From: Microcoleaceae cyanobacterium
Lineage (GTDB): Bacteria; Cyanobacteriota; Cyanobacteriia; Cyanobacteriales; Microcoleaceae
Length of the DNA stretch: 64,000 nt
NCBI GenBank assembly: GCA_051652765.1
Contig: JBOFUV010000035.1
Location: forward strand, 1-64,000
Direction of reading: 5' to 3'
Part shown: one piece after another, positions 16,958 through 56,505 of the stretch
How the letters are laid out: the number at the start of each line of letters is the position of its first letter
Numbering within the stretch: the first letter of the stretch is position 1
Notes under the pieces: generated by a model
What the model was told of the DNA's origin: nothing
What the model saw: the letters and a program-made list of their open reading frames with translations, nothing else
Database searches by the model: none
Made by a program: the position numbers and the translations under genes

Positions 16958-16962
16958 GCTGA
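16132..16962 (+). CDS. Fused MNT + HEPN protein, copy 2 (start TTG 16132 or ATG 16147)
   Basis: Same motifs as copy 1, offset by 842 bp. The ORF-track start at 16093 overlaps copy 1 and is unlikely. Confidence 0.85.
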   Translation: MDTFVMTSALTSVSSTTAVAQLEQRRQMALEIATRCQQTLKDQFGATEVILFGSLRGDSVWHGQSDIDIAVAGLSWENWLEAQEILQKLAPEGLKIDLVQLETVSPRVRTRILQEKPMPQNLYLALKEHLEDELVALEKNATDIRAALDRAGTNLDEYNIRAVASYVIDFYKRCERISRRVAVTLDEQLPQGDNWHEALLQQVAEPTENRPVLWSPALQSDLDQYRKFRHIVHHKYGDQLRSPQVVALAENACSVFEDVQRAITQFSQWLVQQVQS

Positions 16963-25812: not shown

Positions 25813-27102
25813 CTAATTAACAAATGAAAGGTCAGCCTTACCAAAGTTCACCGTCAAAGCAATGTTCAGGTTTTCTAAAACTTTGACCAACCATAAAACT
25901 CCATCCTGGGAGGAGGATTCATAGTGACTAAAAAGAATAGAGAATCGTTTCTCAAGGTAGGGTCTGGCCCTACGACAAATCAACACGAGCTTCAGCAACA
26001 AACTCACTGTAAACGTTGGACTGGTATTTCCAATCAGGTCAATAAATACAGAGTGACTCGGTTTTTGAGGGCTTTCAATCACCAAGAAATTTAAAATCTG
26101 GCTACAGGTTCGCAACAGTAAGAACTCGCTGTAGGGTTCATCATTACTATAGGGAATTGTATTGTGTAGTTGCTTGTAGAGTCTATTGCCAAATTGCCGT
26201 CTAGCGTAAGCCGAACTAAAGCTGCTGGGCAGTAGGTAGTCGTACAAGTCATCTTTGAATGCCTGAAATGTTTGGGCAGAACTGGTGTGAGTCACAAACC
26301 GTTTTGCCACATCCCGGTAGGTGCAATTTCCCTCAACTTTCCCAGCAAATTGTCTTAACGCCAGAACCAATTCACGATTCGTGAGTAAAGTTGGGTTATC
26401 AAGCGGAGACTTAATATTCTTGGCCGCTTCCATAGACACCCGAGCCACTTCTGCCCTCCGCCACTGATGTGCTGCATACCGAGACAAATCAAGCTCAAAC
26501 TTGCGCTGGTCATGGGCCTGAATTTGTTGAATCATCTGGCAATGTTCATAGGAACTGTCTTCATTGAGTAGGCAGTGCTGATATAGGTAGGGATAGCGAC
26601 GAATCAGTTTCCTCAGGGGTTGGGACTGGGATTGATGACCATAATAGCCTGGAGACTGACACAGCACTTCAGCAAAACGTTTCAGAGCGAGATATTGATC
26701 ACTGCGAGTAAAGGCTTGCACAAACTCAAGCAGTTGCTTTTGTCTCCGGGAGTTCAAGTGCAGACTGATAGAGTGAGTGTTAACTGCTTCAAAAAGCTGA
26801 ATCAACTGCTCAACAGCTTCCCGCCGATTTGGCGCTGAATGCCAACCATCAAGAAGGATGTAACAGCACCGATTTAAAATAAAAATAAAATCTTCTTCAG
26901 CCAGCTTGGAATTTAGGATTTTTTCCAGGGCTTGAGCAATTTGCCGATCAGAATACCCAGATCCTACAATAAACAGCAATTGAAACTGTTCAACAAGTTC
27001 ATCTGCACCCTTGAGACTGACCTGCTTTGTCCAATGATCATACAGGCGCTGCTCTTCAGGAGTAACTAATCGGTTGTATGAGTTCGCTAAGGGTTTCTTC
27101 AT
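25813..27102 (-). CDS. Hypothetical protein, resembling a conserved cyanobacterial family of unknown function
   Basis: 429-aa ORF with LNRCCYIL and LIRRYPYLY blocks; no catalytic motif recognised. Confidence 0.75.
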   Translation of the reverse strand: MKKPLANSYNRLVTPEEQRLYDHWTKQVSLKGADELVEQFQLLFIVGSGYSDRQIAQALEKILNSKLAEEDFIFILNRCCYILLDGWHSAPNRREAVEQLIQLFEAVNTHSISLHLNSRRQKQLLEFVQAFTRSDQYLALKRFAEVLCQSPGYYGHQSQSQPLRKLIRRYPYLYQHCLLNEDSSYEHCQMIQQIQAHDQRKFELDLSRYAAHQWRRAEVARVSMEAAKNIKSPLDNPTLLTNRELVLALRQFAGKVEGNCTYRDVAKRFVTHTSSAQTFQAFKDDLYDYLLPSSFSSAYARRQFGNRLYKQLHNTIPYSNDEPYSEFLLLRTCSQILNFLVIESPQKPSHSVFIDLIGNTSPTFTVSLLLKLVLICRRARPYLEKRFSILFSHYESSSQDGVLWLVKVLENLNIALTVNFGKADLSFVN

Positions 27103-38185: not shown

Positions 38186-41032
38186 TCAGTCTTGGGCAAC
38201 TGCAATTTTTTCTAAACAGGACTCAAGTAGCCTCCGAATTTTTTTGATCTGAAAATCATGAGCTAGATTTTGCATATCTTGAATGAAGAGTAGTGAGTCT
38301 TGATCAGAAGGCGTAAGTTCGCTGAGAGCCTTTTCTAAACTAACAATATGACCCCGCTTCACTAGATCGAGTAATGTTTCGAGTTGCTCCTTTGAAAAGT
38401 AAGCGGTTCGGGCTGGGGTTTCTATTAATCGTTTTGCAGAATATCTATCGTTCTGTTTTGCTGATCTGATCTGATCAGGTGGTTCAACTCGAATCCAATC
38501 TAATCGTAAATGCTGTTGCAGGCAAGCAAAAAGTTCATCAACCTGAATGGGCTTGGAAAGGAATGCATCGGCTCCAGCAACAAAGCACTTCTGCTGTTCA
38601 GCGTCAAAAACTCGACCGGATAAAACAGCGATTTTGATATTTTTCAGTAAGGGAGACTGGCGCATTTTGCGGATCATTTCCAACCCATTTAGCAGTGGCA
38701 TTGTAATATTTGTAATGACTAAATCAGGTTGAATTTGAGTCGCCATGTCCAAACCTTCCTGACCATTGGTGACTTCAACACAGAGGAATCCAATGGGTTT
38801 AAGTAAGTCAATGATCACGGATCGGTTCTCAGGCTGATCATCGACAATCAAAATTTTAGGTATGCTTCCTTTGATCCCAACAATTTCCCTTGAAGTCACC
38901 TGAAATTTTTTATTTTGCTGCCGTTCTAGAGAAACTTCTAGACATAAGTCAAACCAAAATCGGCTGCCTTTTCCAGCATGACTTTCGACATTTAGATCAC
39001 TATTCATTAACTGTACAATTTTACGGCTAATGGCTAATCCTAACCCTGTTCCTTCAGACTTTCTCTGAACATCGCCAACCTGTTCAAACGGCAAGAAGAT
39101 TTTTTCGAGTTGTGCAGGTGTCATCCCAACTCCAGTATCTTCCACTTGGAATCGGATTCTCGCCACTGGATGCTCGGATTGGATGGCTAGAGCTTGTGTT
39201 ACAGAAGTATTGAGCAAAGTTGCTGGATGAGTTAAGACAGAATCTACCGGTTCATCTTCTAGCAGTTCTACTTTGAACGTAACGGTTCCATGATCCGTAA
39301 ACTTGGTGGCATTGCCGAGTAAGTTGATCAATACTTGCCGAAGCCGCTTTTCATCACTACCTATTCCTAAAGGCAAATTAGGATTGGCATCATAAATAAA
39401 ATCAATTCCTTTTTCATCAGCTCGAATTCGGCAAATTTCAACAACCCCTAGAAGAAAAGAGGAGAGATGAAAACTACTCAGCTCTAATTCCAGTTTATGA
39501 GCTTCAATTTTGGATAAATCGAGGAGGTCATTGATTAAGTTTAATAAATGGGAACCACACTGATAGATAATATTGACCCCATCTTTTTCTGAGACGAGTA
39601 ATGTTTGCGATCGCTGCAGGATTTGAGCGTATCCTAAAATCCCATTTAGGGGAGTTCGCAATTCATGACTCATGTTGGCAAGAAACTCACTTTTGGCCTG
39701 ATTTGCAACATCCGCAGCAATCCTAGCCTGTTCTAATTCCTGAGTTCGTTTTTGTACTTTGACCTCTAAAGTTTGGGAGTAATCTTTTAACTGGGCATTG
39801 GCTTGAATTAATTCCCACTGATGACGGGAATTGGTTGCCAAAATTGTAGAGCTGGTCAGGGCCGCCAAGGGAGAAATGACAGGAATCCACCACCCGTGCA
39901 AAAAAGCAACGTACCCGCAGGCCATCACAATACTTCCAGTCAACAAGAAGTTAAGCACCAACCCGGCAAAAAAGAGTCGCATCCCTGCCTGGGTTGTGCG
40001 AGGCAGTACCCAACTGAGGCTCGCCCCTGCCAATGCACCCGTGAGAATCCAGAGCCCCTTAGCCCACCAGGGCCAGGGTCTGAGCACACTACGTCCATCC
40101 AAAGCCGCACTCAACATCTGGCTAGCAACGTTGGCATGAACGACAATACCAGCCATTGTGTCAGAGGCGGTAGTTTTGTTATCAGAGTAAGGGGTTTCAA
40201 AGAAGTCATTGGTACTTTCAGCCGTTGAGCCGATCAAGACAATCCGATTCTGAACTTGTTCAAGAGAGAGCCGACCCGCAAGCACATCGATGATCGAAAC
40301 GGTTTCAAACTGCTGTTGGGAGCCATGATAGTTCAATAAAATCTGATATCCCCCCAAGTGAGCTTGTTCATGACCAAAATCACCAGACCGCAGAGGAACA
40401 AAAACAGCTTTCCCGAGGCGATAGGATTTTTGACTGGGATCGATCTCCTCTAGGGTGATTCCTGCCGCTTGAAGATAAATCAGGCTAAGCCGAACCCCCA
40501 GGGTGGGGATGATTGCTCCAGTACCATCTCCAGCCGTAATCAGGCTGCGGCGAACTTTGCCATCAGCATCTAGCAGTACATCCGATAGAGCCACTTGATC
40601 CCGTTGAGCCAGCATCGGATTGGGAGAGATCCGATTCCCAACAGCTTTCTGGATTCCAATTAAATTAGGAGTGGACTGGATGACCTCAAGCCATTCCTCA
40701 TGTCCGGGTTCAACGGGTAAGTTCCGGTAGATATCCAAACCAATCGCTCTGGGCTGATAGGTCTCCAACCGACGAACCACCTCGGCAATCAAGCCATCAC
40801 TCAGGGGCCATGTTCCCAGGGTGTTGATATCAGTATCGTCAATGGTGACAATTAGAATGCGACGTTCAATCGATCCTGCTGGCCGTAACCGAAAAAATAA
40901 ATCTAAAGTAGCCCACTCTAAAAGTTGAAATAGACCAACTGATGATCCTAGGATGACAAACGCAGCAACACTAGAAGAGATCGTGAATACAAAACGCCAC
41001 CGTCTGACCCATTGGTTGATGGAGATCCACAT
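38186..41032 (-). CDS. CHASE2-domain hybrid histidine kinase with C-terminal receiver-like domain
   Basis: CHASE2 + 3 TM, H-box [15 protein letters not shown]-box [21 protein letters not shown]; receiver ILIVDD...[11 protein letters not shown]...FLSKP. Confidence 0.93.
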
Positions 41033-41144: not shown

Positions 41145-41858
41145 TTAATTAAGCACAGGTTGGCTGGCTAATGTTCCTAACCCAACCGAAGTCAGCTCTG
41201 TCTGCCATGCACGAACAACAGTTGGATCGTTAGGTTGAGCCTGTTTCAACTGAGCTAAAGATGCCATCATATCGTACCACAAGCCTGCCTGACCCAGGGC
41301 AGAAGCCTGTTCTAGAGACGGAGAAGCAGTCCAAGTCGGGTTTGTTGTCTCTCGGCGCTGAACCCATCCAGTAATGGTCGGGCTATCGGGCTCAAGCTGA
41401 CTTCCACAAATCAGGGCCAAAGACCACATATACTTCTTCCCAATTTCCAGAGGAGGAGCTTCCTGAGGAAATCTAATCTTGGCGACCCCCGCATGGGGAA
41501 CTGCAAACTGGGCTTGATAATAATGGTTGCCGTTCTCATCTTGCAAGCTAAAAAACACCTGCTTTACCGAAGACTGAGGAATGTAAACCAAGATGGCTGG
41601 GTGAGTCGCAACGGTCAACCCTATTTGAGTTGTGGGCAGCAAAGGAATAGCCGAGGGACTTCCTGCCGCATCAGAAAAGCAGGGATTATCTGTGCGGGTT
41701 CCTCCCCCTTTAGAGGTAATCGGAGCCTCATCACCGGGAGGCTGGAACATTTGAGCAAACCCTGGCTTGCCTGAAAAAGCGCTTACTCCTAGTCCTATTG
41801 CCAAGAAAGACAGGAAAAAATTCTGATTTGAAAAGAACTTGCTCATTGTACTCAGCAC
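41145..41858 (-). CDS. DUF928-family exported protein
   Basis: Signal peptide, PPGDEAPITSKGGGTR, GLTVATHPAILVYIP, LEIGKKYMWSLALIC, GWVQR and AGLWYD motifs. Confidence 0.88.
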   Translation of the reverse strand: MLSTMSKFFSNQNFFLSFLAIGLGVSAFSGKPGFAQMFQPPGDEAPITSKGGGTRTDNPCFSDAAGSPSAIPLLPTTQIGLTVATHPAILVYIPQSSVKQVFFSLQDENGNHYYQAQFAVPHAGVAKIRFPQEAPPLEIGKKYMWSLALICGSQLEPDSPTITGWVQRRETTNPTWTASPSLEQASALGQAGLWYDMMASLAQLKQAQPNDPTVVRAWQTELTSVGLGTLASQPVLN

Positions 41859-42319: not shown

Positions 42320-44998
42320 CTACAACCAATTCCCGACTAAAACAAAGGGAGCCCAATACACAGGATGGCTATATTCTCCTCCGTTCAGCAATCCCAACTG
42401 AGCTTGGCGAAGCGCCTCTGCCTTCGTTATTCCCGGTTGACCCAGTTGCTTGTAGAACTCAACCATGAGTTTTGTTGTAGAATCGTCCCAAACAGCCCAA
42501 AGACTGGCAATGGTGCTCCGTGCCCCTGAACGGATTGCTATTCCTGCTAATCCTAAAGCAGCCCGTCGATCTCCCTGGGCAGTCTGACAAGCGCTCAACA
42601 CCAACAGGTCAACGGGGGTTTGATTGCCTGTTGATCGAGAACGCAACAGGGCATCAAAATCTTTAACATTGATTTTGCCGTCCCAGGTGAGGATAAAGGT
42701 CTTCTCTGCTACGCTGCTGAACTGACCATGGGTTGCCAAATGTAGGATGCGGGCTGGAGAAGTTTCGAGGGTCTCCTCTAGATTGGCAGTGGTAAAGGCT
42801 TGATTGAGAATGACTTGAGCCGGAACTTCGGCAGCAATCTGTTGCAGTTCTTGCTCAACCCCCGGTAGAGGTAAAAATCCCTGACGCGCTTCACTCAACC
42901 CTGCCGTAATCGCTTCATCCTTTGTTAATTCAGTCGGACGAGATTCAAGCAGTTGCAGACCTGGACTGAGGGCAACCCCATACTGCTCTAACAAATATTG
43001 TTGACCATCGTGTAGGGCCGCCATAGGGAGATTTCTTAACTCACTGTCAAGTACAAAAACCAGGGTTTTGACGTGAGATTGGACTAGGTCTGCTTGAACT
43101 GGACGGATTAACCAGTTATAGGCTTGTTGATAGAGTTTTAACCGTTGGTCTGGGCTGTAGGCTGGATGTAAAGATTGGCGCATTTTGCTCAAAATCGGAA
43201 TCAGCGTGTCTTGAGAGACAGAACTGGCATGGTGTTGCAAAGGCTTTCCCGGCAACGCCACAATCACTTCTAAGCGATCTGGCAGAATGATGGGATAAAT
43301 CACGGCTGCTGCCGGATCAACTTCATCAATCCGAGCAGGCTTCGCCTCCAAACAAGCCTCGCGGAAAAAGTTATCGAGTTCTGCAAGTTGTAACGCTTCA
43401 ATCACCGCTTGGGCTTGATTCAAATTGGCCTGAACACTCACAACCAAGCCCGATGTTTCCTGGAACGACGTTTCCTCAAGCAACACAGAGACAAACTCTC
43501 GATAAACGGGTTCAATGGTCTCAGTAAAGGAAAATTGAACGTCGGGGCTAACGGCAACAAGGTCATTGCGAAGGCCCTGTAGGGTCTCGAAAGCAACTTG
43601 ATAAGCTGCGATCGCCCCCTCTAGATCGCCTTTCTGTTTGAGCAATCGACCGAGTTGCCAGGATGCCTGGGCGGTTACTTCAGCGGCATTAGTAGCTTGA
43701 GCAAGCTGAAGAGCTTGTTCGGTCAGGGGTAAGGCTGCAGAAAATCGCCAGGTTTGTTCGTAGAGTTGGCCTAGTTGTGTCAGGACAGTTGCCTCGGCTT
43801 GGACATCCCCTAACGCTCTGGCTTGCTGAAGCGCCTGAGATAACGTATGGTCAGCAACAGACTCGGCCTCCCTCCGATCTTGGATGGGGCTCGAAGTGAT
43901 GCCATTCATGAGACTCTCTGCAAAGTTAACAGCCTTATAAATAGAGGTGCGACTGGGCGGTAATGCAGCTAGACCGGCGGCAATGCTTTGCACTAAGGAG
44001 GTTAGGTTGGGTTGCTGTTCTGGCTGGCCTTCAATCCCAGGGGGCTTAGCCTGCAACCGCAGTTGGTTCAATTGTATAGTTAGCTTTAGCTCTGCAGTGG
44101 GGGCGATCGCCGCTGCCTGTTGATAGTAGTCTAGGGCTTGTTCAGGGTGTTGTTGATCTTTGGCTAGATTTCCCAGGTTTAATAGAATTTCTGCTCGTTC
44201 TGAAGGGGCATTCAGGGTTTGAGCAACGGTTAAACTGCGGTGTAGAACCTGTTCAGCCTCTGCCAGATCTCCCAAAAGTTGTAAGGTCACGCCTAAACTC
44301 TGCAACCCTTTGACCTTGAGCAAAGAATCTTGCTGAGTTTGCAGGTCAGCTTGGATCACGGTCAATAGTTTACGGGAACGACGATAGAGTCCCAGAGCCC
44401 TCAGGGCTTGAGCCTGATTAATTTGGCTACCCAAAGTTCCAACTTTGTCTTCTGCCTGACGATAGGCTTGTTCTGCTTGTTCCCAGGATTCTAACGCTTC
44501 TGAGGTTTTACCTTGGGCCCGATAAAGCTGTCCTTGGGTGGTTAGGGCCTGGGCCAACAGGTTAATCTCGCCTCGATATTGGGGCTGATTCAAAATCCCT
44601 AAACTTTTTGTCATTACAGTCTCAGCAGCGTTCCACTCTCCCAAGGCTTGATGAACCAGGGACAAATAGCTCCAGGCCCAAGCCTGACCCACGGCATCTC
44701 CTTCACGCTCAAACGCTTGAATGGCCTGCTGCCAAGCTACTTTTGCCTCAGAAAGCCGTCCGGCAGTATAGAGTTGGCGGCCTTGTTCCAAGAGTTGTGT
44801 TGCAGTCTGAGTCTGAGTCTGAGTTGCAGTGGCGACAGTCTGGACTGCTGGAGATGCTGAGGGAACGGTAGCGTCTCCAGGAGCAGTTGTTATCACCCAC
44901 AAAAGAGTCACAACACTCAACGCAATTCCCCAGCAACCTCGCCTGAATGAGTGTTTAGCCCGTCTCATAGAGTGTTGGATATAGAAGGTCGGATACAC
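42320..44998 (-). CDS. Exported TPR-repeat + CHAT (caspase-like cysteine protease) protein; likely start ATG 44968
   Basis: Signal-peptide-like N-terminus, TPR helices, LQLAELDNFFREAC, catalytic HLATHGQFS / VLSACQTA, C-terminal HPVYWAPFVLVGNWL. Confidence 0.93.
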   Translation of the reverse strand: MYPTFYIQHSMRRAKHSFRRGCWGIALSVVTLLWVITTAPGDATVPSASPAVQTVATATQTQTQTATQLLEQGRQLYTAGRLSEAKVAWQQAIQAFEREGDAVGQAWAWSYLSLVHQALGEWNAAETVMTKSLGILNQPQYRGEINLLAQALTTQGQLYRAQGKTSEALESWEQAEQAYRQAEDKVGTLGSQINQAQALRALGLYRRSRKLLTVIQADLQTQQDSLLKVKGLQSLGVTLQLLGDLAEAEQVLHRSLTVAQTLNAPSERAEILLNLGNLAKDQQHPEQALDYYQQAAAIAPTAELKLTIQLNQLRLQAKPPGIEGQPEQQPNLTSLVQSIAAGLAALPPSRTSIYKAVNFAESLMNGITSSPIQDRREAESVADHTLSQALQQARALGDVQAEATVLTQLGQLYEQTWRFSAALPLTEQALQLAQATNAAEVTAQASWQLGRLLKQKGDLEGAIAAYQVAFETLQGLRNDLVAVSPDVQFSFTETIEPVYREFVSVLLEETSFQETSGLVVSVQANLNQAQAVIEALQLAELDNFFREACLEAKPARIDEVDPAAAVIYPIILPDRLEVIVALPGKPLQHHASSVSQDTLIPILSKMRQSLHPAYSPDQRLKLYQQAYNWLIRPVQADLVQSHVKTLVFVLDSELRNLPMAALHDGQQYLLEQYGVALSPGLQLLESRPTELTKDEAITAGLSEARQGFLPLPGVEQELQQIAAEVPAQVILNQAFTTANLEETLETSPARILHLATHGQFSSVAEKTFILTWDGKINVKDFDALLRSRSTGNQTPVDLLVLSACQTAQGDRRAALGLAGIAIRSGARSTIASLWAVWDDSTTKLMVEFYKQLGQPGITKAEALRQAQLGLLNGGEYSHPVYWAPFVLVGNWL

Positions 44999-45023: not shown

Positions 45024-48000
45024 TCATGGATGATAACAATACAGCGGTTGTAGGATAGGAGTGCGGGGGTTGGTTTGATTGGGAAGGTGAGCCACCAGCT
45101 CTAGATTTCCCTGTTTGTTAACAATCCAAGCTTGAGCCTCAACGGCTACGGCTTGAACCAATGTACTCGCAATCTTACCCCTTGCTGCATCCGATGTCTC
45201 AGCTTGTTCAACCTGAGCAGGTTGTGCGTCCCGCAAATCCGTCCGCAAGTCTGACCAAACGACTTCTCCCCCAAGGGTTTGGCGAGGGTCTTCGGGTAAT
45301 CCTCCTCGTCCCGTGACGACGAAGGTGTTTTGTTGCTCAGAGGCGCAGCCCGTTACCACTAGTTGAGAAACATCGGTCACTTGTTCGGGGAGTTGAGTGG
45401 TAGCAACCTGACGATTTGTGTCTGGATTGGAAACATTAACGACCCCATCTACTCCAAATTGGGAGCTGGCTGTGATTTCACTGCCATCAACCAAGAAAAT
45501 TCCCTGGGTAGAAATGGTGATATTTCCCCCAGGACCCAGCACTGCATTCGCTCGGATATCGCTATTGCCTTGGGCAACCACAAAATCACTGTTAATTCTG
45601 ACATCGCCTCCCCCGCCCGTGCTGTCTGACACGCTAGTACTGACTAAGCTGTTATTGTTCAGGCCGAGGAAATCAGTGGTTAAGTTGATATCGCCGCCTC
45701 CAGATTCCATCGATGTGGCAGTTACTTCCCCTTGGTTCATCTGGATTGTGCGAGCGCTGATGTTAATATTGCCTGCTTCACCTAAACCCTGGCTATTGGT
45801 TGAAACTTGACCGTTGTTCGTCAGGTTCAAGCTGCTGTTAATCTCCAGACCAACGCTTCCCCCTGCTCCTGTTGAACCTATACGAGCTTCACTTAATACA
45901 CCACCTCCACCGTCAAGATTTGCAGTATTCGCAAAAATGGTGATATTCCCAGCTCTGCCAGAGCTTTCAGTGTTTGTATTGACGACACCACCATTAACTA
46001 GATTCAGAGTATTGGTGTTGAGGGTAATTTGGCCACCTTGCCCAGAGGACTGGGAGTCTGTGCCGCTAAAGATCCCACTCGCTGTTGCTGGACTTGATCC
46101 GTCAATGGTAATCGTGTTGGCGTTGACAATAGCATTTCCAGCATCACCGACTCCAAGGGTACTTGTACTTAGAATCCCTCCGTTGATTAAGTTCAGAATG
46201 TTGGTGGCTAAGTTCAGGTTTCCCCCGGCGCCAGTTGCAGAGGCTAGGGATTCACTCAGAATGCGACTTGACTGGTCAACCCTTGTAGAAGTCGTATTGA
46301 TGTATAGGTTTCCGGCATTCCCTGAGGACGCTGTACTGGTGCTGAGCAGCCCGCCGCTCAATAGGTTTAACGTCAGAGCATTGAGGTTAATATTTCCACT
46401 ATTTCCTGTCGCTCCAACTAGGGATTCGCTCAGAACCCGCCCTCCCGTGTTCACATTTACAGAATTAGCGTTGAGGTCAATCAGCCCTGCACTTCCCGAT
46501 GCCAAGGTACTGGTGCTGAGGGATGCACCAGAATCAACCGTTAGATTACTGGTTCTCAACATAACATTGCCACCCTTTCCCGAGCCACGAGTTTCGGCTG
46601 AAATTTGGCTGTTGGTAGTGGCGATCGCCCCATCCCGAATGTTTAGGGTGATGTTGCCGCCCCCGCCGTTAAAGGTTGTGGCGGTAATGCTACTCGGATT
46701 GTTGCGGTCAGTGGTTCCCAAAAGGACTGTATTCGCCTGAATAGTAACACTCCCAGCTTGCCCTTCTCCGGGAGGACGACTGGTATCCAGGCTAGGAAAG
46801 TTACTCGCGTTGATTGTGGCTCCATCCTGAATCGATAACTGATTAGCATTCACAGTAATCGTGCCACCATTTCCAGTGCTTTCAATCGCATTGGAGAATA
46901 GACCACTGCGGCCAAACTCTGAACTGCCCCTGAGGTCAACTTGAGCTGCGCGAACAGTTAAGTCTCCTCCCTGGCCCGTACTTGCTGTTCCTACCCCAAT
47001 CTGTCCCCCATCCCGGACGCTCAGTTGACCTGCATTCAGTGTTAAGTTTCCTCCATTCCCCGTAGTCGCGCCAGACTCTACGGTTGTCAGTAAAGCACTC
47101 CCTCCCCGTTGTCCCACCCCAATAACCTCAATGATGGCGGCATCAATGGTCAAATTTCCCGCATCTCCATTTCCCAAAGTAAGAGCTGTAGCTTGGGCTC
47201 CATCCGCTGCTCGGAAGCGAATCGCTTCGATTGTGACATTGCCCCCTTGGCCAGTCGCTCCAGGCAGAACATTAGAGAATAGACCGCTTTGAACTCCACC
47301 ACTAGGAGAAGTTCCCAAAAGTTCTACATCAGTTGCTTGAACAGTCAAATTGCCCCCGTTTCCTGACCCTAATGTTCCCGTAAAGACCAGTGCTCCTCCA
47401 GAGATTGAGAGGCGATCAGCCTGAATCTGCACATCTCCACCTTGACCCAATGCAAGAGTAGAAGTCGATATTCCACTGGAACCTAGCCCAGCAGTTCCGC
47501 CACTGATATTGATCTCTCCAGCCCGAATAGAGATATTGCCTGCATCTCCAGAACCAAATGTGTCGCCCTGTAACCGACCTCCCCCAGCAAGAATTAAACT
47601 TCCTGTGTCAATCTGAATGTTTCCACCTTGTCCTATGGCTCCAGGATCAACATTCGTAGATAGCAAGCTAGGAAACGTAACGGTCGGAGTTGTTCCTGCC
47701 ACTGCAAACACCTCAGATGCCTTGATATTAATATCTCCACCCGTAGTAGTTCCCAGAGTATTTGCTAAAACGGCAGAGCCACCACTGACGACAACTTGTC
47801 TGCCCTGAATTTGAACTCTGCCGCCGCCATTGCCGCTGGTATCGATTGAGGCTGTGTCAGAGAGGAGAATATCTTGAAAGGTTTGCACTCCCGCATAATT
47901 AAATGACCACCCTGAATCTGTATCTGCAGGAACTAAACTGACAGTGCCGCTGCTAACACTGCCCAGAACAACCTGTCCATCTTCAGCCGTCAAGTTTCCT

Positions 48001-48692
48001 CCTGGTAAAAGGATGTTACCTCCAACCAAAGCCAGGGTCTGACCGGGCGGAACTTGCAAACCAAGAGGTCGATCGTCTCGAACAATTGTTCCGACATCAA
48101 AGTTAAAGGTCAGATTGTTCCCAGGCCCCTGAACGGTAATGTCACCCGGAATTGCCCCATATTGCAAGCCAATCGGAATATTAACACTCAGTAACGGAGA
48201 AGCCTGAGGATTGATCGCGCTAAATTCAAGGCCGTCAGCAAACTGCATCTCCTCGGCAGTGCTGCCAACAAAAGATCCCCCAATTTGCAAAGCTGCATTG
48301 GGGCCAAAGATAATTCCATTGGGATTGAGTAAAAACAGATTGGCTGTACCGTTAGCACGAATCAAACCATCAATACTTGAAACTGAGCCTCCGGTAACTC
48401 GACTGATGATATTAGCAATTGAACCCGCATTATTAAAAAAAGCAGTTGTTCCAGTGGGGACGGAAAACTGCTCAAAACTATGGAATAAATTACTGCCTGC
48501 AGTCGTACCGCCTACAATCTCGTTGAGGCTACCACTAGGAACAATGACCGAATGATTCGGTAGGGTGGAGTCAGGAACGATTTGAGCAATAGCAGGGCTG
48601 ACCCAGAAGTAACTACTCAGGATCAAAACCCTCACATTGCTGATTTGCAAGACGTTCCGTAGGAACAATTGGAAGTTAACCCTAGAAGTCAT
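45024..48692 (-). CDS. Filamentous haemagglutinin-like TpsA exoprotein
   Basis: Signal peptide ..PAIAQIVPD, TPS domain NLFHSFEQFS...NIISRVTGG...LLNPNGIIFG, Gly/Asn/Thr beta-helix repeats, C-terminal C..TFVVTGRGGLP...EAQAW segment. Confidence 0.93.
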   Translation of the reverse strand: MTSRVNFQLFLRNVLQISNVRVLILSSYFWVSPAIAQIVPDSTLPNHSVIVPSGSLNEIVGGTTAGSNLFHSFEQFSVPTGTTAFFNNAGSIANIISRVTGGSVSSIDGLIRANGTANLFLLNPNGIIFGPNAALQIGGSFVGSTAEEMQFADGLEFSAINPQASPLLSVNIPIGLQYGAIPGDITVQGPGNNLTFNFDVGTIVRDDRPLGLQVPPGQTLALVGGNILLPGGNLTAEDGQVVLGSVSSGTVSLVPADTDSGWSFNYAGVQTFQDILLSDTASIDTSGNGGGRVQIQGRQVVVSGGSAVLANTLGTTTGGDINIKASEVFAVAGTTPTVTFPSLLSTNVDPGAIGQGGNIQIDTGSLILAGGGRLQGDTFGSGDAGNISIRAGEINISGGTAGLGSSGISTSTLALGQGGDVQIQADRLSISGGALVFTGTLGSGNGGNLTVQATDVELLGTSPSGGVQSGLFSNVLPGATGQGGNVTIEAIRFRAADGAQATALTLGNGDAGNLTIDAAIIEVIGVGQRGGSALLTTVESGATTGNGGNLTLNAGQLSVRDGGQIGVGTASTGQGGDLTVRAAQVDLRGSSEFGRSGLFSNAIESTGNGGTITVNANQLSIQDGATINASNFPSLDTSRPPGEGQAGSVTIQANTVLLGTTDRNNPSSITATTFNGGGGNITLNIRDGAIATTNSQISAETRGSGKGGNVMLRTSNLTVDSGASLSTSTLASGSAGLIDLNANSVNVNTGGRVLSESLVGATGNSGNINLNALTLNLLSGGLLSTSTASSGNAGNLYINTTSTRVDQSSRILSESLASATGAGGNLNLATNILNLINGGILSTSTLGVGDAGNAIVNANTITIDGSSPATASGIFSGTDSQSSGQGGQITLNTNTLNLVNGGVVNTNTESSGRAGNITIFANTANLDGGGGVLSEARIGSTGAGGSVGLEINSSLNLTNNGQVSTNSQGLGEAGNINISARTIQMNQGEVTATSMESGGGDINLTTDFLGLNNNSLVSTSVSDSTGGGGDVRINSDFVVAQGNSDIRANAVLGPGGNITISTQGIFLVDGSEITASSQFGVDGVVNVSNPDTNRQVATTQLPEQVTDVSQLVVTGCASEQQNTFVVTGRGGLPEDPRQTLGGEVVWSDLRTDLRDAQPAQVEQAETSDAARGKIASTLVQAVAVEAQAWIVNKQGNLELVAHLPNQTNPRTPILQPLYCYHP

Positions 48693-48792: not shown

Positions 48793-49083
48793 TTAGGAGT
48801 CTGCACGCCAAGGGCCACCACCGCTACAACCAGGCATCCAGGGAAATAGCAAGCAGAGATTGGCCATGGTATCACTGTCTTCAACCATAGACTTCGCAGT
48901 GTCAGAGGTCGTTTGATCGGCTTCTAGGGAAGTTGGATTTAGGGCTGCTGCCTGAATTGAAACTGAACCGACGACAACTACAAGTCCCATCAGGGTTCTA
49001 GAAGCTGCTTGGGTGAATTGCTTGAATGTTGTTTGAGATTGCATAGAGTTCATTCGAGAAATGCCTTGTTTGGTAATCATCAT
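48793..49083 (-). CDS. Small secreted peptide carrying a CLLFPWMPGC motif; mini-paralog of the adjacent metalloprotease (start may be 49053)
   Basis: Hydrophobic signal-like LMGLVVVVGSVSIQA. Its C-terminal 12 codons match the neighbour at 11/12 residues, with six synonymous codon differences. Confidence 0.8.
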   Translation of the reverse strand: MMITKQGISRMNSMQSQTTFKQFTQAASRTLMGLVVVVGSVSIQAAALNPTSLEADQTTSDTAKSMVEDSDTMANLCLLFPWMPGCSGGGPWRADS

Positions 49084-49276
49084 AACTGTGCTAAATCTTT
49101 GTTTGACTGAAGCAACTTTGACGAGGGTTGAAAAATCAAACTGAACCTTTACTACTATTAGTATAACTCGTATTTGATCAATTTATGCCATTATTTTATA
49201 TTTTTTTGTATGCATAAGATAGTTTTTAATGCCATCGAGAATTTACTGATTATCAAACTAGTTTAGATTTTTTGTC

Positions 49277-49292
49277 TCCGTAAATTTACAGA
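49277..49292. promoter_or_regulatory. Palindromic site TCCGTA-AATT-TACAGA upstream of the small peptide gene
   Basis: One mismatch to TCCGTA-N4-TACGGA; related sites occur in other promoters of the window. Confidence 0.5.
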
Positions 49293-49513
49293 ATGCTGTT
49301 TAAGTTATCGCATCTTCCGACCTCAAATTATGCCAGTTCTATATTTGTGATCTCCCAATCTGTGATCTCCCAATCCGAGATGCTCTGGCTTGAAATAGGG
49401 TGAAGAAAATAGGTAGAGCGTTATATTTCCTCTAGTGAGTTTGAGGCTTTGAGCAGTTGAGTCAAAGGGTTCCGATTGAGAGTTCCGGTCTAAAGCTCCA
49501 GCTTAAAACAGTC

Positions 49514-51001
49514 CTAGTGGTTCCGAGAGCGCTTTCCTCCAGCAATTAAACTCAAAGCCCCAAATCCGAGTAATCCCACTACAATTGTCGGCTCAGGCAC
49601 TTTCTCGGGTTCCGTAACTAGAATCACTTCCTGAGCTAATAGATTCGCTTGCAGCAACTCTTGCCAACCACCAGTACTACCACTACATCCAGGTCTCCAG
49701 GGGAACAGTAGACAGTGGTTGTAGACTTCGCTGTCTTGCACCATTGCTTCGACTCGATCGTCAACGCCGTTACCATTGGTGTCAATCGTTTCAACCATAG
49801 CTTCAGCGGCCTGCTGTTCAGCTTGGGCAAAGAGAGTAACCAGGTCATAGGCCATCTCACCCGCACTAATCCCATCTCGCATTCTCTGGGTAGTATTCCA
49901 ACCAATCACGTCAAATGCCACCAGATCAAGGGCCGTAATACTACGGGTCATGCCATAGCCAATGGCTGGGTCCATGACTCCAATGGTTTTGTTAGTGCCC
50001 AAATATTCCTGCTGTTTCCAGTGACTGGCCTGATAGCCATCGGCATCTTCCCCTTTGCCTGTGGAGAATTCAGCGACCCGACATTGGCTCGGGGCAAGAG
50101 AAACTCCCTGGCAACTGCTAAATGAACTGTAGGCTTGCAGACCATCTGTGGCAACGGCTTGAGTGCCATTAATTGAAAGAAACTTGGCTTCACCGTTGGT
50201 GGTCAGATCAGCGACTCCTTCCTCTAAACTCGTTTCAGAGTAGCGGAACAAGTCTAGAGTTTGGGCAGATTTTTCCTGGCCTGAATTGCTGGCAAAATCA
50301 TCAACAGAGCTGACAAAACCCAGTTGGTGACCGATTTCATGGAGAGCAACACTGAGGAAATCAATTTCGTCACCCCCAGGGCTATGGAAGAAGTCATAGC
50401 TCCAGTTAAAGTTCTGATTCATGCCAATGTAGCCATCAAACCCACTGGCATTTGCATCGATCAAACCTAATGCCTTGGCGTTGGCGTAGGTCATATTGAG
50501 TTCGCTAGAAGATGTTTCAGCGTCATCCTCTTCACCCTCATCTGACAAGAAATGATAGCTCTCGTCGTCGGTGCTCATGTTTGCGTGAGCAGTTCGATCT
50601 CGACCAGAAGTAATATCTGAATTGAGCGCCGAATCGAAATCTTGGAAGTTAACTCCAGTTAGCATTGCCGGTAGCGAACCACCCAACACGTTTTCCGGGA
50701 GTAACTCATCACCCACTAAGTCAATATAAAGATTGACGGTGACTTCATCAACGAGATAGTCTTCCCAGATGGCGCTAGCCAATTCAAAAGCGACTTTCTG
50801 TTCATCCGTAACGCCTGTGCTGTAGGTCGCTTGGATATCTAATGCCTGAGCCGGGACTGAACCCAGGGCAACGACCATCCACCCTAGAAGGGCTTTCGGA
50901 GCAACCCGTGCCAGGTACTGAATCAGTCCTTGGGCTTGAGTAGAGGGGTTGCACCCAGATTGACAATAGATCTTACTATTCATTGTTGCTATTTGAGTCA
51001 A
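49514..51001 (-). CDS. Secreted zinc metalloprotease with PEP-CTERM anchor (NF038122-like family)
   Basis: Signal peptide ..GSVPAQA, ANAKALGL, VALHEIGHQLGFVS (HEXXH), LDLFRYS, QASHW, FDVIGW; C-terminal VPEPT + TM + KRSRNH. Confidence 0.88.
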   Translation of the reverse strand: MTQIATMNSKIYCQSGCNPSTQAQGLIQYLARVAPKALLGWMVVALGSVPAQALDIQATYSTGVTDEQKVAFELASAIWEDYLVDEVTVNLYIDLVGDELLPENVLGGSLPAMLTGVNFQDFDSALNSDITSGRDRTAHANMSTDDESYHFLSDEGEEDDAETSSSELNMTYANAKALGLIDANASGFDGYIGMNQNFNWSYDFFHSPGGDEIDFLSVALHEIGHQLGFVSSVDDFASNSGQEKSAQTLDLFRYSETSLEEGVADLTTNGEAKFLSINGTQAVATDGLQAYSSFSSCQGVSLAPSQCRVAEFSTGKGEDADGYQASHWKQQEYLGTNKTIGVMDPAIGYGMTRSITALDLVAFDVIGWNTTQRMRDGISAGEMAYDLVTLFAQAEQQAAEAMVETIDTNGNGVDDRVEAMVQDSEVYNHCLLFPWRPGCSGSTGGWQELLQANLLAQEVILVTEPEKVPEPTIVVGLLGFGALSLIAGGKRSRNH

Positions 51002-51551: not shown

Positions 51552-54089
51552 TCAATTCTTAGTTAATTTTTGCTGGAGAAACCTCGTTGCAGCGTCTTGA
51601 GGTAAAGGCTTGGAGAAGAAATATCCCTGTCCATATTCACAGCTTAATGCTTTCAAGGTTTGTTTCTGGGCTGCTGTTTCTATGCCTTCTGCGACAACAG
51701 ATATGCCCAGATTATGGGCTAGAATCACAATTGCTTTGACAATTTCTTTACTAACTTGGACTTCTTCCATACGGTTAACAAAAGAACGGTCAATTTTTAA
51801 GGTGTCGATGGGAAAGCAATACAGATAACTTAGGGAAGAATAGCCAATCCCAAAGTCATCTAAGCTGAGTTGCACCCCGAGGGATTTTAAGCGATTGAGA
51901 ATAGCGATCGCCTCTTCCACATCTGTCATAATTGCACTTTCTGTAATTTCCAGCTTGACACAAGCGCAGTCCACCTGACTTTCCACCAAGATAGTTTCAA
52001 AGTGTTCTACCAGATCAGGCTGATCAAATTGATGACTAGATAGGTTAATGCTCATGACCAGTGGCATCGGGAAAGCAAACTGTTGATTCCAGGCTTGAAT
52101 TTGACAACAGGCTTCCCGCAAAATCCAATGCCCCAAAGGAATAATTAACCCAGTTTCCTCTGCTATTGAGATGAATTGATCCGGCATAATCAAGCCATTT
52201 TGAGGAGAATACCATCGGATAAGGGCTTCAAACCCAATAATTCTCTCGGTCTGAAGACATAAAATCGGTTGGTAATAGAGTTGAAACTCCTGATTTTTAA
52301 TCGCTTGACGCAAGTTGGTTTCAGTTTCCAATCGCTGTTTGGCCTGCAACCCCATCCGTTTAGCAAACACTTGATGTTGAGCTTTGCCGAGAACTTTGGC
52401 ATGATACATGGCTGTTTGAGCATCCTGTAAAGGATCTTCAGCCTGGATCAAGTCTTCAAATTGATTGTAGGCAATGCCAATGCTCACCGTTGAGTAAATG
52501 TCGTGCCCACTAATCTGAAAAGGTTGAGTCAACTGCTTTTGAATGTGGTCGGCCATCTCTTTAGCCTCCCCAAACTGTTTGAGCGCAGGCAGCAAGATTG
52601 CAAATTCATCTCCACCCACCCGAGCCAACCGTGCATCAGGGCGCAAACAACTCTTGAGGCGACGACTGGCGGCGATCAGTAACCGATCCCCAATAGGATG
52701 CCCCAAGCCCTGATTAATCATCCGAAATCGATCTAAATCGAGAAATAAAATCGCAAACAGGGGGGGCTGAGGTTGACGAATATAACCCAGTTGCCCCAAG
52801 TGTTGGATAAATAAACGACGATTGGGCAACCCGGTTAACGCATCGTAGAAAATATTGTGCAGGGATTTGTAGGCGAGAACAATAGTCATGGCTGTTAATA
52901 AACCCAAGGCAGGAGCCACGAAAGGAATCCATCCTGCCTGACAAAAGGTCACAAAACAGATTATCCAAAGCCCAGTAAAAGCGGCGATCGCCCCAATTCC
53001 CAACCCAAGCGGATGGTGCAACCGCCACACTAGCAACCCCCCGATCAAAGACCATAGCCACAGCCACAGGACTTCAACCCACTCCTCCCAAAACCAGAAA
53101 AGAGGCCGATCATCCAGAACCACACCCAGAATTTGACTCACCATCTGAGCATGAATCAGAACCCCTGGCATCTGATGATTCTCTGTTTTCGTGGCGCTGA
53201 ATGGGGTGGGGAAGAGATCTCTAAGGCTAGGGGCTGTTGTTCCAATTAAAACCACTCTGTCTCGAACCTGGGCTGAATCAACTCGACCTTGGAGAACATC
53301 AGTCAAAGTGACTCGTTCAGCAATCGTTTCCGAGGGATAATTGATTAGACTTTGCCATCCCCGAGCTTCTGACGGAGGGAGTTGATATCCACCAGAAGTT
53401 TCTGTCAGCCGAGGAAAGACCGTTTCTCCAATTTGTAACTCATCCCGGTGCACCTGAAACTTAAGACTTTGATCAGAAAGATAGCGTAAACTCAGTCGAA
53501 GGGAGAAAGAGTAGAGTTTTTCTGAGTTGGATTCGGCATATAGTAAACTGCGTCGAATCGTATTGTCAGTATCGCTAATCAGATCACTAAAGCCAACTCG
53601 CTCTGGAGGGATATTAGCGGGAGGAGGAACGATTCCGTGAAGCGTGATCGCGACGATATTATCTGCTTTCAATACCTGGGATAGCTGTTCGCTACCCGGA
53701 GGTTGGGGTACGTCGCGATAGATATCTAAACCAATGACTTTGGGTTGATATTTGTTCAGATTTTCAAGGGTCTGAGCAATCACTTGATCGGATAGAGGCC
53801 AATGACCCTGCTGTCGAATGTCTTGTTCAGTAATTTCAACAATTAGGATGCGAGGATCAATGGTTTGATTTGCTTTCAAACGAATCATTTGATCAAAAGA
53901 AGCAAGCTCTAAACTTTGAAATTCCCTTGTGAATTTTATAGCAGTTAAAAATCCTGTTGCCAACAGACTGGCGAAAATTATAGTCGTAATATGAAGAGAT
54001 GAAGATCGATATGAAAGCTTTTTTTTGACCTTTTTGTTGCTAGAGGTTAACAATAGGGAACGAGTTTTTTGTAAAAGCTTCACAAACAT
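51552..54089 (-). CDS. CHASE2-GGDEF-EAL c-di-GMP signalling membrane protein
   Basis: CHASE2 (IGLDIYRD, MPGVLIHAQMVSQIL) + 3 TM; DALTGLPNR, LARVGGDEF, FEALIRW and LDDFGIGYSSL are all intact. Confidence 0.95.
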   Translation of the reverse strand: MFVKLLQKTRSLLLTSSNKKVKKKLSYRSSSLHITTIIFASLLATGFLTAIKFTREFQSLELASFDQMIRLKANQTIDPRILIVEITEQDIRQQGHWPLSDQVIAQTLENLNKYQPKVIGLDIYRDVPQPPGSEQLSQVLKADNIVAITLHGIVPPPANIPPERVGFSDLISDTDNTIRRSLLYAESNSEKLYSFSLRLSLRYLSDQSLKFQVHRDELQIGETVFPRLTETSGGYQLPPSEARGWQSLINYPSETIAERVTLTDVLQGRVDSAQVRDRVVLIGTTAPSLRDLFPTPFSATKTENHQMPGVLIHAQMVSQILGVVLDDRPLFWFWEEWVEVLWLWLWSLIGGLLVWRLHHPLGLGIGAIAAFTGLWIICFVTFCQAGWIPFVAPALGLLTAMTIVLAYKSLHNIFYDALTGLPNRRLFIQHLGQLGYIRQPQPPLFAILFLDLDRFRMINQGLGHPIGDRLLIAASRRLKSCLRPDARLARVGGDEFAILLPALKQFGEAKEMADHIQKQLTQPFQISGHDIYSTVSIGIAYNQFEDLIQAEDPLQDAQTAMYHAKVLGKAQHQVFAKRMGLQAKQRLETETNLRQAIKNQEFQLYYQPILCLQTERIIGFEALIRWYSPQNGLIMPDQFISIAEETGLIIPLGHWILREACCQIQAWNQQFAFPMPLVMSINLSSHQFDQPDLVEHFETILVESQVDCACVKLEITESAIMTDVEEAIAILNRLKSLGVQLSLDDFGIGYSSLSYLYCFPIDTLKIDRSFVNRMEEVQVSKEIVKAIVILAHNLGISVVAEGIETAAQKQTLKALSCEYGQGYFFSKPLPQDAATRFLQQKLTKN

Positions 54090-54231: not shown

Positions 54232-54459
54232 ATGTTATTTGAAACCACACCCCGTAAAGCACTCATTTTAGTTTGCTTTGCCTCGCTCCTGAATGGTCTC
54301 ATTTCCATCTACCCACAATTGGCTTCGGCTAATAGTTCAAGTCCTAGTAGTGCTACGGGCTTGCCTGGACGTCGGGAATCTGGTGGAACAAGAGTTAAAA
54401 CAACTTCTGCTATTTTAGCGGAGCACCGATTGGCTCTTGAGCAAACCGTTCTTCCCTAA
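54232..54459 (+). CDS. Small secreted peptide with GLPGRRESGGTR motif resembling the DUF928 N-terminal motif
   Basis: ATG start, hydrophobic h-region, ASA cleavage site, Ser-rich linker, then PGRRxxGGTR; lies directly upstream of the TpsB gene. Confidence 0.7.
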   Translation: MLFETTPRKALILVCFASLLNGLISIYPQLASANSSSPSSATGLPGRRESGGTRVKTTSAILAEHRLALEQTVLP

Positions 54460-54651: not shown

Positions 54652-56505
54652 ATGATCTTGGCAAACTGGAAATTTTACCTGCCCTGGCATCTAGCCTTGC
54701 AGAAATTGACAGGAACATTTAACCTGACTTCTCTGGGCATTATTGCTCCTGCGCTTCTTGTTGTTCCCGGCCAATCCATTTCACTGCCTTTAGTTAAAGA
54801 CATTTTAGTTAAAGATCGGGTTGAAAATAGTTTGGTTAAAGCCAATCTCCTGTCTGATCTCCTGTTAGAATCTCAGCCTGAACAATCCGTTCAGCTTGCG
54901 CCCCAGCCTCCCTCTCTCTCTCCTCTGCCGGAAATTGAACCTTCCCTGCCACCTCCTCCACCTGAACCGTTGATTCAACCTCAGTCTTCGCCTCAACCCC
55001 AGCAAATTCCGGGAACTATTCCACAAACAACAGTTGTCCAGAAATTTGAGGTGATTGGCAGTACCGTTTTCAGTCCAGATGACTTTGCTGCGATTACCCA
55101 ACCCTTCACCAATCGCCCCATTTCTTTACTGGATCTGTATCAGGTTCGATCTGCGATCACTCAACTTTACGTGGAACAGGGCTATATCAACTCTGGGGCA
55201 TTCATTCCCCCCCAAGAACTGACCCAGGGCCTGGTTAGAATTCAAGTCATTGAAGGCGGTTTAGAAGCCATTAACGTTTCTGGGACTCGGCGATTGCGGC
55301 CCAGTTATATTCGGAGTCGTTTAGCTTTAGCAACCACTCAGCCGCTTAACGTTAGCCGCTTGTTGGAAGCCCTACAACTCCTCCAACTTGATCCCTTGAT
55401 TGAAACTATCTCCAGTGAACTCTCTGCCAGCCCCCGTCAAGGCTTGAGTATTTTGGATATTACTGTTGTGGAAGCAGATTCCTTTGAATTTAGGCTCTTT
55501 GCAGACAATCAACGAACCCCTAGCGTGGGTAGCTTTCGGCGGGGTGTGGGCTTCACCGAGGCGAATTTACTGGGGTTTGGGGACAGTCTTAGCTTTGACT
55601 ATGGGAATACCGATGGCAGTAATAGCTTTGATTTGAATTATACAGTTCCATTCAATGCCCGCAACGGCACCCTCAGTGCCAGCGTAGGTCTTGGCCCTAG
55701 TGAGGTGATTTCTCGCCCGTTCAATGAACTGGACATCACATCGGACTCGCGCTACTACGAACTCACCCTGCGCCAGCCGATGATTCAAAGACCCACTCAA
55801 GAATTTACGGTGGGGTTGACCGGATCTCATCAATCCAGTGAAACTGAACTTTTAGATACCCCGTTTCCCATTGCTGCAGGTGCTGATGATCAGGGACGCA
55901 CCAAAGTGTCCGCGATTCGATTCTTTCAGGAGTGGGTCAATCGGGATTCTCAGTCGGTTCTGGCTTTACGATCGCAATTCAGTCTTGGTATTGGTGCGTT
56001 TGACGCAACGATTAACGATGGAGACATCCCCGATAGTCGCTTTTTTACCTGGCGATTGCAGGGACAATGGGTACGCCTATTGGCCGAAGACACCCTGTTC
56101 CTCCTGCGGGGGGATCTACAACTGGCCAGTGAACCGTTGTTGGCCCTAGAACAGTTTCGACTTGGGGGATTAGATAGTGTCCGAGGATATCCCCGAGATA
56201 CGTTGTTGATTGATAATGGCGTGTTTGTGTCAGCAGAAGTCCGGTTGCCGATCGCGCGGATTCCAGAGTGGGACGCTATTCTTCATCTCACTCCTTTTGT
56301 TGAATATGGTCAAGGCTGGAATGATTCTGGACTTGATCCTGAGCCGGATGAGTTGGGCTCTGTGGGTCTCGGGATACAGTGGCAACAGGGCGATAGTCTG
56401 AGTATTCGAGCTGGCATCGGAATTCCCTGGAATAGTATTGATTCTCCTGATAGAAGTTGGCTCGAAGATCGAATTTATTTTTCAGTGATTTTTACCCCGT
56501 TTTAG
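54652..56505 (+). CDS. ShlB/FhaC/HecB-family TpsB outer-membrane transporter
   Basis: POTRA (FEVIGSTVF...ITQLYVEQGYINSGAFIP...IEG), barrel with SVRGYP (VRGY loop 6), C-terminal Phe. Start codon uncertain. Confidence 0.93.
   Translation: MILANWKFYLPWHLALQKLTGTFNLTSLGIIAPALLVVPGQSISLPLVKDILVKDRVENSLVKANLLSDLLLESQPEQSVQLAPQPPSLSPLPEIEPSLPPPPPEPLIQPQSSPQPQQIPGTIPQTTVVQKFEVIGSTVFSPDDFAAITQPFTNRPISLLDLYQVRSAITQLYVEQGYINSGAFIPPQELTQGLVRIQVIEGGLEAINVSGTRRLRPSYIRSRLALATTQPLNVSRLLEALQLLQLDPLIETISSELSASPRQGLSILDITVVEADSFEFRLFADNQRTPSVGSFRRGVGFTEANLLGFGDSLSFDYGNTDGSNSFDLNYTVPFNARNGTLSASVGLGPSEVISRPFNELDITSDSRYYELTLRQPMIQRPTQEFTVGLTGSHQSSETELLDTPFPIAAGADDQGRTKVSAIRFFQEWVNRDSQSVLALRSQFSLGIGAFDATINDGDIPDSRFFTWRLQGQWVRLLAEDTLFLLRGDLQLASEPLLALEQFRLGGLDSVRGYPRDTLLIDNGVFVSAEVRLPIARIPEWDAILHLTPFVEYGQGWNDSGLDPEPDELGSVGLGIQWQQGDSLSIRAGIGIPWNSIDSPDRSWLEDRIYFSVIFTPF

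Follow-up and report, generated by a model that had tools for sequence, protein, structure and literature searches.

Why should a protein of 96 residues, encoded next to a metalloprotease gene, carry almost the same cysteine (Cys) loop as the tail of that protease? The question is raised by a 64,000-nucleotide stretch of a Microcoleaceae cyanobacterium genome (assembly GCA_051652765.1, contig JBOFUV010000035.1, positions 1 to 64,000; hereafter the window), in which a small gene and an NF038122 metalloprotease gene are neighbours on the minus strand. Our answer begins with the small gene itself, which – as judged by comparison of sequences – is a conserved, selected gene and not a decayed duplicate: a genus-restricted derivative of the protease gene, encoding a predicted secreted, free copy of a peptide ‘cassette’ that the protease holds in its tail. 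The tethered cassette, in turn, occupies a hypervariable peptide slot in a cyanobacterial protease subfamily, which is an undescribed feature of the NF038122 family.

The two genes are laid out as follows, in window coordinates:

48793-49083, minus strand: small gene, 96 aa; leader, spacer, acidic helix, Cys loop, Gly-Trp end
48949-48993, minus strand: hydrophobic core and predicted signal-peptidase site of the small protein (hydropathy and alignment to the protease leader)
48865-48888, minus strand: acidic helix of the small protein, by alignment the counterpart of the protease’s conserved pre-cassette helix
48826-48855, minus strand: free Cys loop C-x8-C, disulfide predicted
48808-48822, minus strand: Gly linker and Trp closing the small protein’s cassette, matching the family’s Trp-Gln boundary
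49514-51001, minus strand: NF038122 metalloprotease, likely start 50983; leader, metzincin-type domain, helical cassette tail, PEP-CTERM-like anchor
49661-49759, minus strand: tethered cassette of the protease (helix-Tyr 49721-49759, Cys loop 49685-49714, Gly linker-Trp-Gln 49661-49681)
49514-49600, minus strand: VPEP motif, transmembrane stretch and basic tail of the protease (PEP-CTERM-like)

Both open reading frames (ORFs) and both Cys loops (48826-48855 and 49685-49714) lie where the original prediction, made from the letters of the window, had placed them. BLASTP aligns the small protein to the protease in two separate stretches – the tail, with 25/70 residues identical (E 2e-10), and the leader, with 14/40 (E 5e-4) – and their local score of 103 compares with a maximum of 59 in 1000 shuffles of the protease. 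The likeness of the leaders, claimed earlier, is borne out by the second of these matches; the common MNS that had also been cited for it falls outside the aligned leader and carries no weight. Too narrow was the statement that the small gene keeps only signal peptide and loop, as leader, acidic helix, Cys loop, Gly linker and downstream Trp are all common to the two proteins, and what is not kept is the family’s invariant Tyr, replaced by Ala directly after the acidic helix. Protease domain and anchor are indeed lacking: only leader and tail align to the protease, neither Pfam nor NCBIfam yields a family match for the small protein, and, having no catalytic domain, it is not itself a member of NF038122.

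At the DNA level the best match between the two genes is just 74% over 46 nt, and the small gene is therefore an old duplicate; the 12 loop codons quoted in the original prediction do differ by six synonymous changes and one amino-acid change. The small protein’s leader has a 12-residue mean hydropathy of 2.4 (with hydrophobic cores at 2.0-3.2 across the three small proteins of the genus), as would suit a signal peptide, and its true start may be Met11 or Met14, because the orthologue in a sister genome begins level with approximately residue 16-19. A structural model places a helix at residues 68-79 with low confidence (predicted local distance difference test, pLDDT, 48), its quality being too low for a fold search, and there is no sequence match in the PDB at E up to 10.

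The genome of the window (G000) shares the small gene with the other two genomes of its genus (G001 and G002), and a check for disruption in these close relatives found the frame intact in all three species. In G002, the orthologue lies between the protease and TpsA genes, with 37/77 aligned residues identical; between G000 and G002, nonsynonymous (dN) and synonymous (dS) divergence are 0.52 and 2.26 for the small gene, and 0.34 and 2.56 for the protease. The resulting dN/dS of ~0.23 for the small gene, rough since dS is near saturation, agrees with the purifying selection that had been proposed from the loop codons, and seven of the ten loop residues (C, F, P, W, P, G, C), plus the closing Trp, are invariant in the three small proteins. 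In two species the claim holds that one loop is encoded twice, once tethered and once free, and loop position 2 tracks within the genome: both genes have Leu in G000 and Ile in G002 (two pairs only). The idea that the two loops had recently undergone gene conversion was rejected, the loop codons of small gene and protease being saturated at synonymous sites in both species.

The third copy has a history of its own. In G001, the small gene encodes 87 aa at an unrelated site and retains no more than a leader, an acidic spacer, the loop and a Trp at its end, the helix being lost; its leader scores 57 and 53 against G001’s own protease leaders versus 21 against the window’s small protein, which suggests a second origin. 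Both protease copies of G001 break at contig ends (C67, C68; L014, L009) at the same residue, with catalytic and tail parts unassembled – likely a collapsed repeat. Two small-gene relatives are called as proteins in public records (P0122, P0123), and the closest proteins carry source labels of Oscillatoriales cyanobacteria.

The small gene’s range is narrow. It is present in 3/3 genus genomes and 3/144 family genomes (0/141 outside the genus), and a search of 401 genomes of the order returned its own genome and one chance match, an unrelated ORF in G753. The loop motif had been expected in small ORFs elsewhere, an expectation that did not survive: among 401 genomes of the phylum, the loop pattern matched its own genome only, and the free form was found only in the genus. 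A protein collection gave the same three small proteins among 70 candidates; a metagenome scan with the small-protein alignment left 0/180 stretches confirmed; Atlas searches gave matches under 0.9 or none; and a profile of 23 cassette tails run against 1681 short-protein candidates returned nothing at E up to 1, a powerless test that missed gene fragments too.

The carrier of the tethered copy passes the NF038122 model at 242.8 bits (cut-off 80), and is thus a member of a family, metallo_LGF, with a leishmanolysin/MMP-like metzincin fold. Its putative metzincin motifs – HExxH at 50315-50341, SHW at 50018-50026 and a Met-turn-like element at 49967-49978 – are invariant in 30/30 aligned rows, and its predicted structure resembles leishmanolysin (Z 12.4, root-mean-square deviation 5.0, 208 residues aligned); Foldseek gave no match at E up to 0.001. 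The PEP-CTERM elements (PEP motif, transmembrane helix and basic tail) are all visible, with 13.3 bits against the TIGR02595 cut-off of 16, which a relative (P0004) passes at 16.5, and an exosortase is represented in G000 by two TIGR03763 (cyanoexosortase A) matches over cut-off. The NF038122 model spans the catalytic domain only, with the cassette tail and the small gene falling outside it.

What fills the tail becomes clear from the family. In 30 aligned homologues (from 120 listed), the loop sits in a slot between a conserved helix with an invariant Tyr (30/30) and a Trp-Gln pair, and a loose helix-Tyr/core/Trp-Gln pattern fits 92/112 scorable homologues, 8 of those listed being unscorable and a few rows misassigned. 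Over-represented in the cores are G (2.9x), R (4.1x), W (5x) and C (14x), and the types seen include Arg-rich, Trp/Gly-repeat, Trp-rich, acidic, acidic Cys-loop and poly-Lys ones. The Cys loop of the window’s genes occurs in 5/92 extracted cassettes (P0001-P0005): it is one of many cores filling the slot, not a widespread motif. Short-tailed members – nearly all non-cyanobacterial ones among them – pass from domain directly to anchor, without a slot. The cassette is not described in the open literature searched (subscription journals and supplements being outside its scope), nor in the available portions of PMC5587647, PMC8195603 and PMC1569441.

Some proteases hold the core many times over, with 11 units counted in L063 and 10 in L071, the array counts of 5-11 being lower bounds. 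Such tandem-array NF038122 proteins, of 1200-2200 aa, were seen in L063, L064, L068, L071, L076 and L114 and in the G816/G819 loci L268-L285, several of them continuing into RTX-like Gly/Asp repeats. At the other extreme, four anchorless proteases (L055 5009-6382; L062 3998-5533 and 5911-7056; L127 3732-5144) end at the closing Trp or one residue after it, like the G001 small protein; their cores are acidic, three with a Cys pair of their own. Broken or split NF038122 genes, with an in-frame stop or split frames, were also noted in other cyanobacteria (L004, L079, L089).

The cores, moreover, track genomes. A census took all NF038122 genes, by catalytic domain, from 10 genomes picked for having cassette proteases, dropped matches without a fetched locus or failing the motif, and recovered 37 proteases, of which 25 had a single core that could be located, 11 had tails of the array type and one was truncated. 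Among pairs at 35-60% domain identity, median core similarity was 0.48 within genomes (17 pairs) versus 0.20 across genomes (267 pairs; permutation p 2e-4), the pairs not being independent and their mean domain identity being 0.48 within versus 0.44 across genomes. Paralogues ~50% identical in one genome often have a common core that orthologues elsewhere lack. In G816, a single core recurs exactly in the tandem arrays of paralogues 49-50% identical; G819 has its own core variant in both clades, the G816/G819 orthologues being 73% and 78% identical. (G819 holds approximately ten NF038122 family members.)

The tandem arrays, the proteins that end naturally at the Trp, the concerted change seen in old paralogues and the free forms all point to a module that functions independently of its carrier and responds to something specific to the genome. 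The original prediction had offered ligand, protease inhibitor or competitor, and strain-identity tag as roles for the loop, and the behaviour of the slot across the family gives indirect support to the ligand or identity-tag option.

A possible reader of such a tag would be looked for among the surrounding genes:

45024-48692, minus strand: TpsA-type protein with a two-partner secretion (TPS) domain, 100 bp past the small gene; candidate reader
42320-44998, minus strand: TPR-CHAT protease with hydrophobic N-terminus and His/Cys motifs; candidate reader or relay
41145-41858, minus strand: DUF928 protein (family match)
38186-41032, minus strand: CHASE2 hybrid histidine kinase, not in the G002 locus; candidate output
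51552-54089, minus strand: CHASE2-GGDEF-EAL receptor; candidate output
54232-54459, plus strand: second mini-gene, 75 aa; leader and DUF928-type N-terminal Arg/Gly motif (54364-54393)
54652-56505, plus strand: TpsB (ShlB/FhaC-type) outer-membrane transporter (family match)

The minus-strand order is thus CHASE2-GGDEF-EAL, NF038122 protease, small gene, TpsA, TPR-CHAT, DUF928 and CHASE2 kinase, with TpsB and the 75-aa ORF on the plus strand. A CHASE2-GGDEF-EAL gene lies upstream of the protease in G000, in G002 and at one G001 copy; the G002 cluster stops after TPR-CHAT, DUF928 and the CHASE2 kinase not being in that locus (L030 18458-19100). G000 as a whole has at least 11 CHASE2, 9 TPS, 15 CHAT and 8 DUF928 matches. 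A sequence scan gave 7 promoter sites versus 5.2 expected and 1 terminator versus 2.7 expected.

Two of these neighbours recur. A TPS gene, the commonest downstream neighbour of long-tailed proteases, directly follows 15/32 long-tailed versus 0/10 short-tailed cyanobacterial proteases (p 0.007, kin not being independent). The count stood at 15/30 and 0/8 before L051 was refiled, four minus-strand loci were added – one with just 999 bp downstream – and the broken L004 was left out. The second mini-gene is conserved beside TpsB and a CHASE2 gene in all three genus genomes, with copies at window 54232-54459 (plus), L030 6511-6771 (minus) and L032 3267-3446 (minus); other matches to its motif in 61 family genomes sit in frames of 247-352 aa. 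A similar short ORF was noted in L068 (3001-3165, plus), and the Arg-type protease cores resemble the DUF928 Arg/Gly motif.

Further afield, the window holds an exopolysaccharide cluster (4594-25168) with many glycosyltransferases, a sulfotransferase, an ABC transporter and Wza- and Wzc-like genes. It includes two tandem ORFs, each a nucleotidyltransferase fused to a HepT-like domain (15290-16962, plus), and in or beside it are four ORFs that lack a Pfam match at 1e-5 or are unexplained (coordinates listed: 7983-8951, 19005-20255, 25813-27102). The window encodes yet another CHASE2 protein, its third, at 29334-31718 (plus), this one joined to a CHAT-like domain.

What, then, might the cassette be for? 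The reading that we favour, at a little under an even chance, is that it is a lineage-specific extracellular peptide signal, made in tethered and free forms, for the adjoining TpsA/TPR-CHAT/DUF928/CHASE2 envelope system; that the same locus holds a second conserved leader-plus-motif mini-gene counts in its favour. The small gene would have been born by duplication and internal deletion, possibly twice; both products would be exported by Sec, and the two Cys would close into a loop. The protease, anchored by its PEP-CTERM-like tail, would display the core or excise it near the Tyr and after the Trp, and the free form would be the same tag without an anchor, able to spread further or be made in larger amount; as it lacks the Tyr, it may also be cleaved in another way or work as an antagonist. 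A reader specific to the genome – TpsA in the first place, followed by TPR-CHAT and DUF928 – would relay the signal to the CHASE2 receptors, which would alter cyclic di-GMP and kinase output, with effects that are plausibly on gliding, bundling or biofilms.

Precedents exist for parts of this scheme. According to PMC10581220, CHASE2 receptors control motility and biofilm in filamentous cyanobacteria, without a known ligand. In Sinorhizobium meliloti, PMC13001267 has a protein signal activating the CHASE2 cyclases CyaD1, CyaD2 and CyaK through the outer-membrane protein NsrA, a likeness in that a protein-type signal acts by way of the outer membrane; there, however, the signal is a plant ribosomal protein, whereas here it would be self-encoded, with TpsA/TpsB, TPR-CHAT and DUF928 in place of NsrA. 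A second parallel lies in the PapR/NprB/PlcR and NprR-NprX pherotypes of the Bacillus cereus group (RRNPP systems), where, according to PMC4147580, a small precursor with a putative Sec signal is matured by a metalloprotease and carries a C-terminal core in group-specific variants; the corresponding cores here appear to be linked to genomes, though some genomes hold several. Unlike RRNPP systems, the core here lies in the protease’s own tail, with a predicted disulfide loop, a diderm cyanobacterial host and envelope proteins as candidate readers, and there is no adjacent cytoplasmic TPR regulator (Rap, Rgg, NprR, PlcR or PrgX): the nearby TPR protein is the TPR-CHAT protease, with its hydrophobic N-terminus and no helix-turn-helix match.

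Another parallel is offered by PatS/PatX/HetN and the peptidase PatP of filamentous cyanobacteria, in which a short motif occurs both in a small exported precursor and within a larger protein, PatX being exported and cut by a peptidase (PMC7761841 and PMC12756182). The Pat motif is conserved, in contrast to the hypervariable slot, and its target HetR is cytoplasmic; the RG(S/T)GR pentapeptide is absent from the three small proteins. The arrays bring to mind multi-copy fungal pheromone precursors such as that of yeast alpha-factor, secreted proteins with tandem, near-identical cores and spacers between them, from which they differ in being, on the sequences, fused to a protease domain.

Several observations weigh against such a signal. 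A TPS gene is missing just downstream of 17/32 long-tailed proteases, and the short-tailed L005 has a divergent TPS gene upstream. The G001 small gene lies away from any receptor gene, and the tail of its protease is unassembled. In each of the three free forms another residue (Ala, Ala, Thr) takes the place of the invariant Tyr, with a hydrophobic residue one position before it, which weakens the idea that the free form is processed identically, and loop position 7 is free to vary, being M, R, W, I or L. A free cognate form was looked for without success in the genome loci of 49 other long-tailed proteases of the family (a set without the DNA context of P0003 and P0004, the other Cys-loop proteases), in 25 metagenome loci, and with tail queries in 20 further genomes, 6/20 of which gave no match at all and whose short frames were contig-end fragments or a split gene; as it was not found outside the genus, the free form is no general component of the system. 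One genome, besides, does not equal one tag, since G806, G808, G814 and G815 hold two or three core types each, and the selection of census genomes for cassette proteases, like the dependence and slightly unequal domain identities of the pairs, tempers the tracking result.

A wider form of the proposal, possible if doubtful in our estimate, makes cyanobacterial NF038122 proteases self-loading pheromone carriers, each with a lineage-specific peptide in the tail slot that it displays or excises – encoded singly, in tandem or, as here, in a free mini-gene – and TpsA, TPR-CHAT, DUF928 and CHASE2 as the reading cascade.

The explanation that survives best beside the signal, though we think it unlikely, treats the cassette as a surface-binding or sorting tag, whose Arg/aromatic cores would attach to the polysaccharide of the genome’s own sheath, to a membrane surface or to an export machine used in common; the free product would then be a small matrix peptide or competitor. 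The cores are rich in G, R and W, a composition in keeping with binding to glycans or membranes; a sheath specific to the genome would likewise account for the concerted change of paralogues and, through avidity, for tandem copies, while anchorless proteases ending at the core could use it as their sole tether. PMC1569441 ties PEP-CTERM proteins to exopolysaccharide systems, and the window has its own cluster with Wza, Wzc and sulfotransferase at 4594-25168, but this lies more than 20 kb away. Poly-basic, strongly acidic and Pro/Trp disulfide-loop cores in one fixed slot, moreover, are chemically more varied than a single class of substrate would lead one to expect, and the link to TPS genes and the second mini-gene are left unexplained.

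Only a slim chance goes to the cassette being a bait or latency loop of its own protease, with the free form as an inhibitor or decoy encoded alongside it. Protease inhibitors that act through a canonical disulfide loop or are co-encoded, such as Bowman-Birk and potempin, offer a comparison. In the structural model, the core of the protease is a flexible, low-confidence loop between two helices on the catalytic domain (residues 425-437, pLDDT <50); the free form, without the invariant Tyr, could be a poorly cleaved mimic; the small gene adjoins the protease in G000 and G002; and in one weak row of the fold search, an aromatic-Pro tetrapeptide is seen in complex with the metzincin karilysin (4IN9, E 0.03). 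Complex prediction for the mature small protein with the tail-less catalytic domain and Zn scored 0.02 against a mark of 0.32, which is no evidence either way. Autoinhibition, however, needs one copy where the arrays hold 5-11, the cores follow the genome more than the catalytic domain, short-tailed members of the family do without the slot altogether, and the G001 copy is unlinked and has lost its helix.

It is highly improbable that the small protein is the precursor of a bioactive cyclic peptide (antimicrobial or anti-grazer) akin to ribosomally synthesised and post-translationally modified peptides, matured by the neighbouring protease. Its leader-core-follower layout, the hypervariable cores and the multi-core arrays do recall cyanobactin-type precursors, but the neighbours are receptors, not immunity or export genes, and the 43 window ORFs scanned (five without a family at 1e-5) included no modifying enzyme – no radical SAM, YcaO, lanthipeptide, ATP-grasp, P450 or subtilisin-type maturase – distant enzymes not having been searched. 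Next to no credence attaches to a non-functional remnant of partial duplication, which would fit the narrow range but not a reading frame left unbroken in three species while its synonymous sites came close to saturation, a dN/dS of ~0.23, 7/10 loop residues invariant and two relatives called as proteins in public records.

If the wider form of the proposal is true, the self-loading carriers would amount to a kin-recognition or quorum system of filamentous cyanobacteria and would provide a first self-made class of ligand for cyanobacterial CHASE2 signalling. The clusters concerned, of TpsA, CHAT, DUF928 and CHASE2 genes, are abundant yet barely described, DUF928 being named in one paper and NF038122 in none of the literature searched. 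Because species carry different cores, the candidate peptides – short and makeable – come with built-in specificity controls, and, should the signal be real, peptide-based self-recognition in mat- and colony-forming cyanobacteria would be opened to direct test. Even should the cassette prove to be a sheath binder or a tuner of its protease, a hypervariable slot that tracks genomes remains an undescribed feature of the family.

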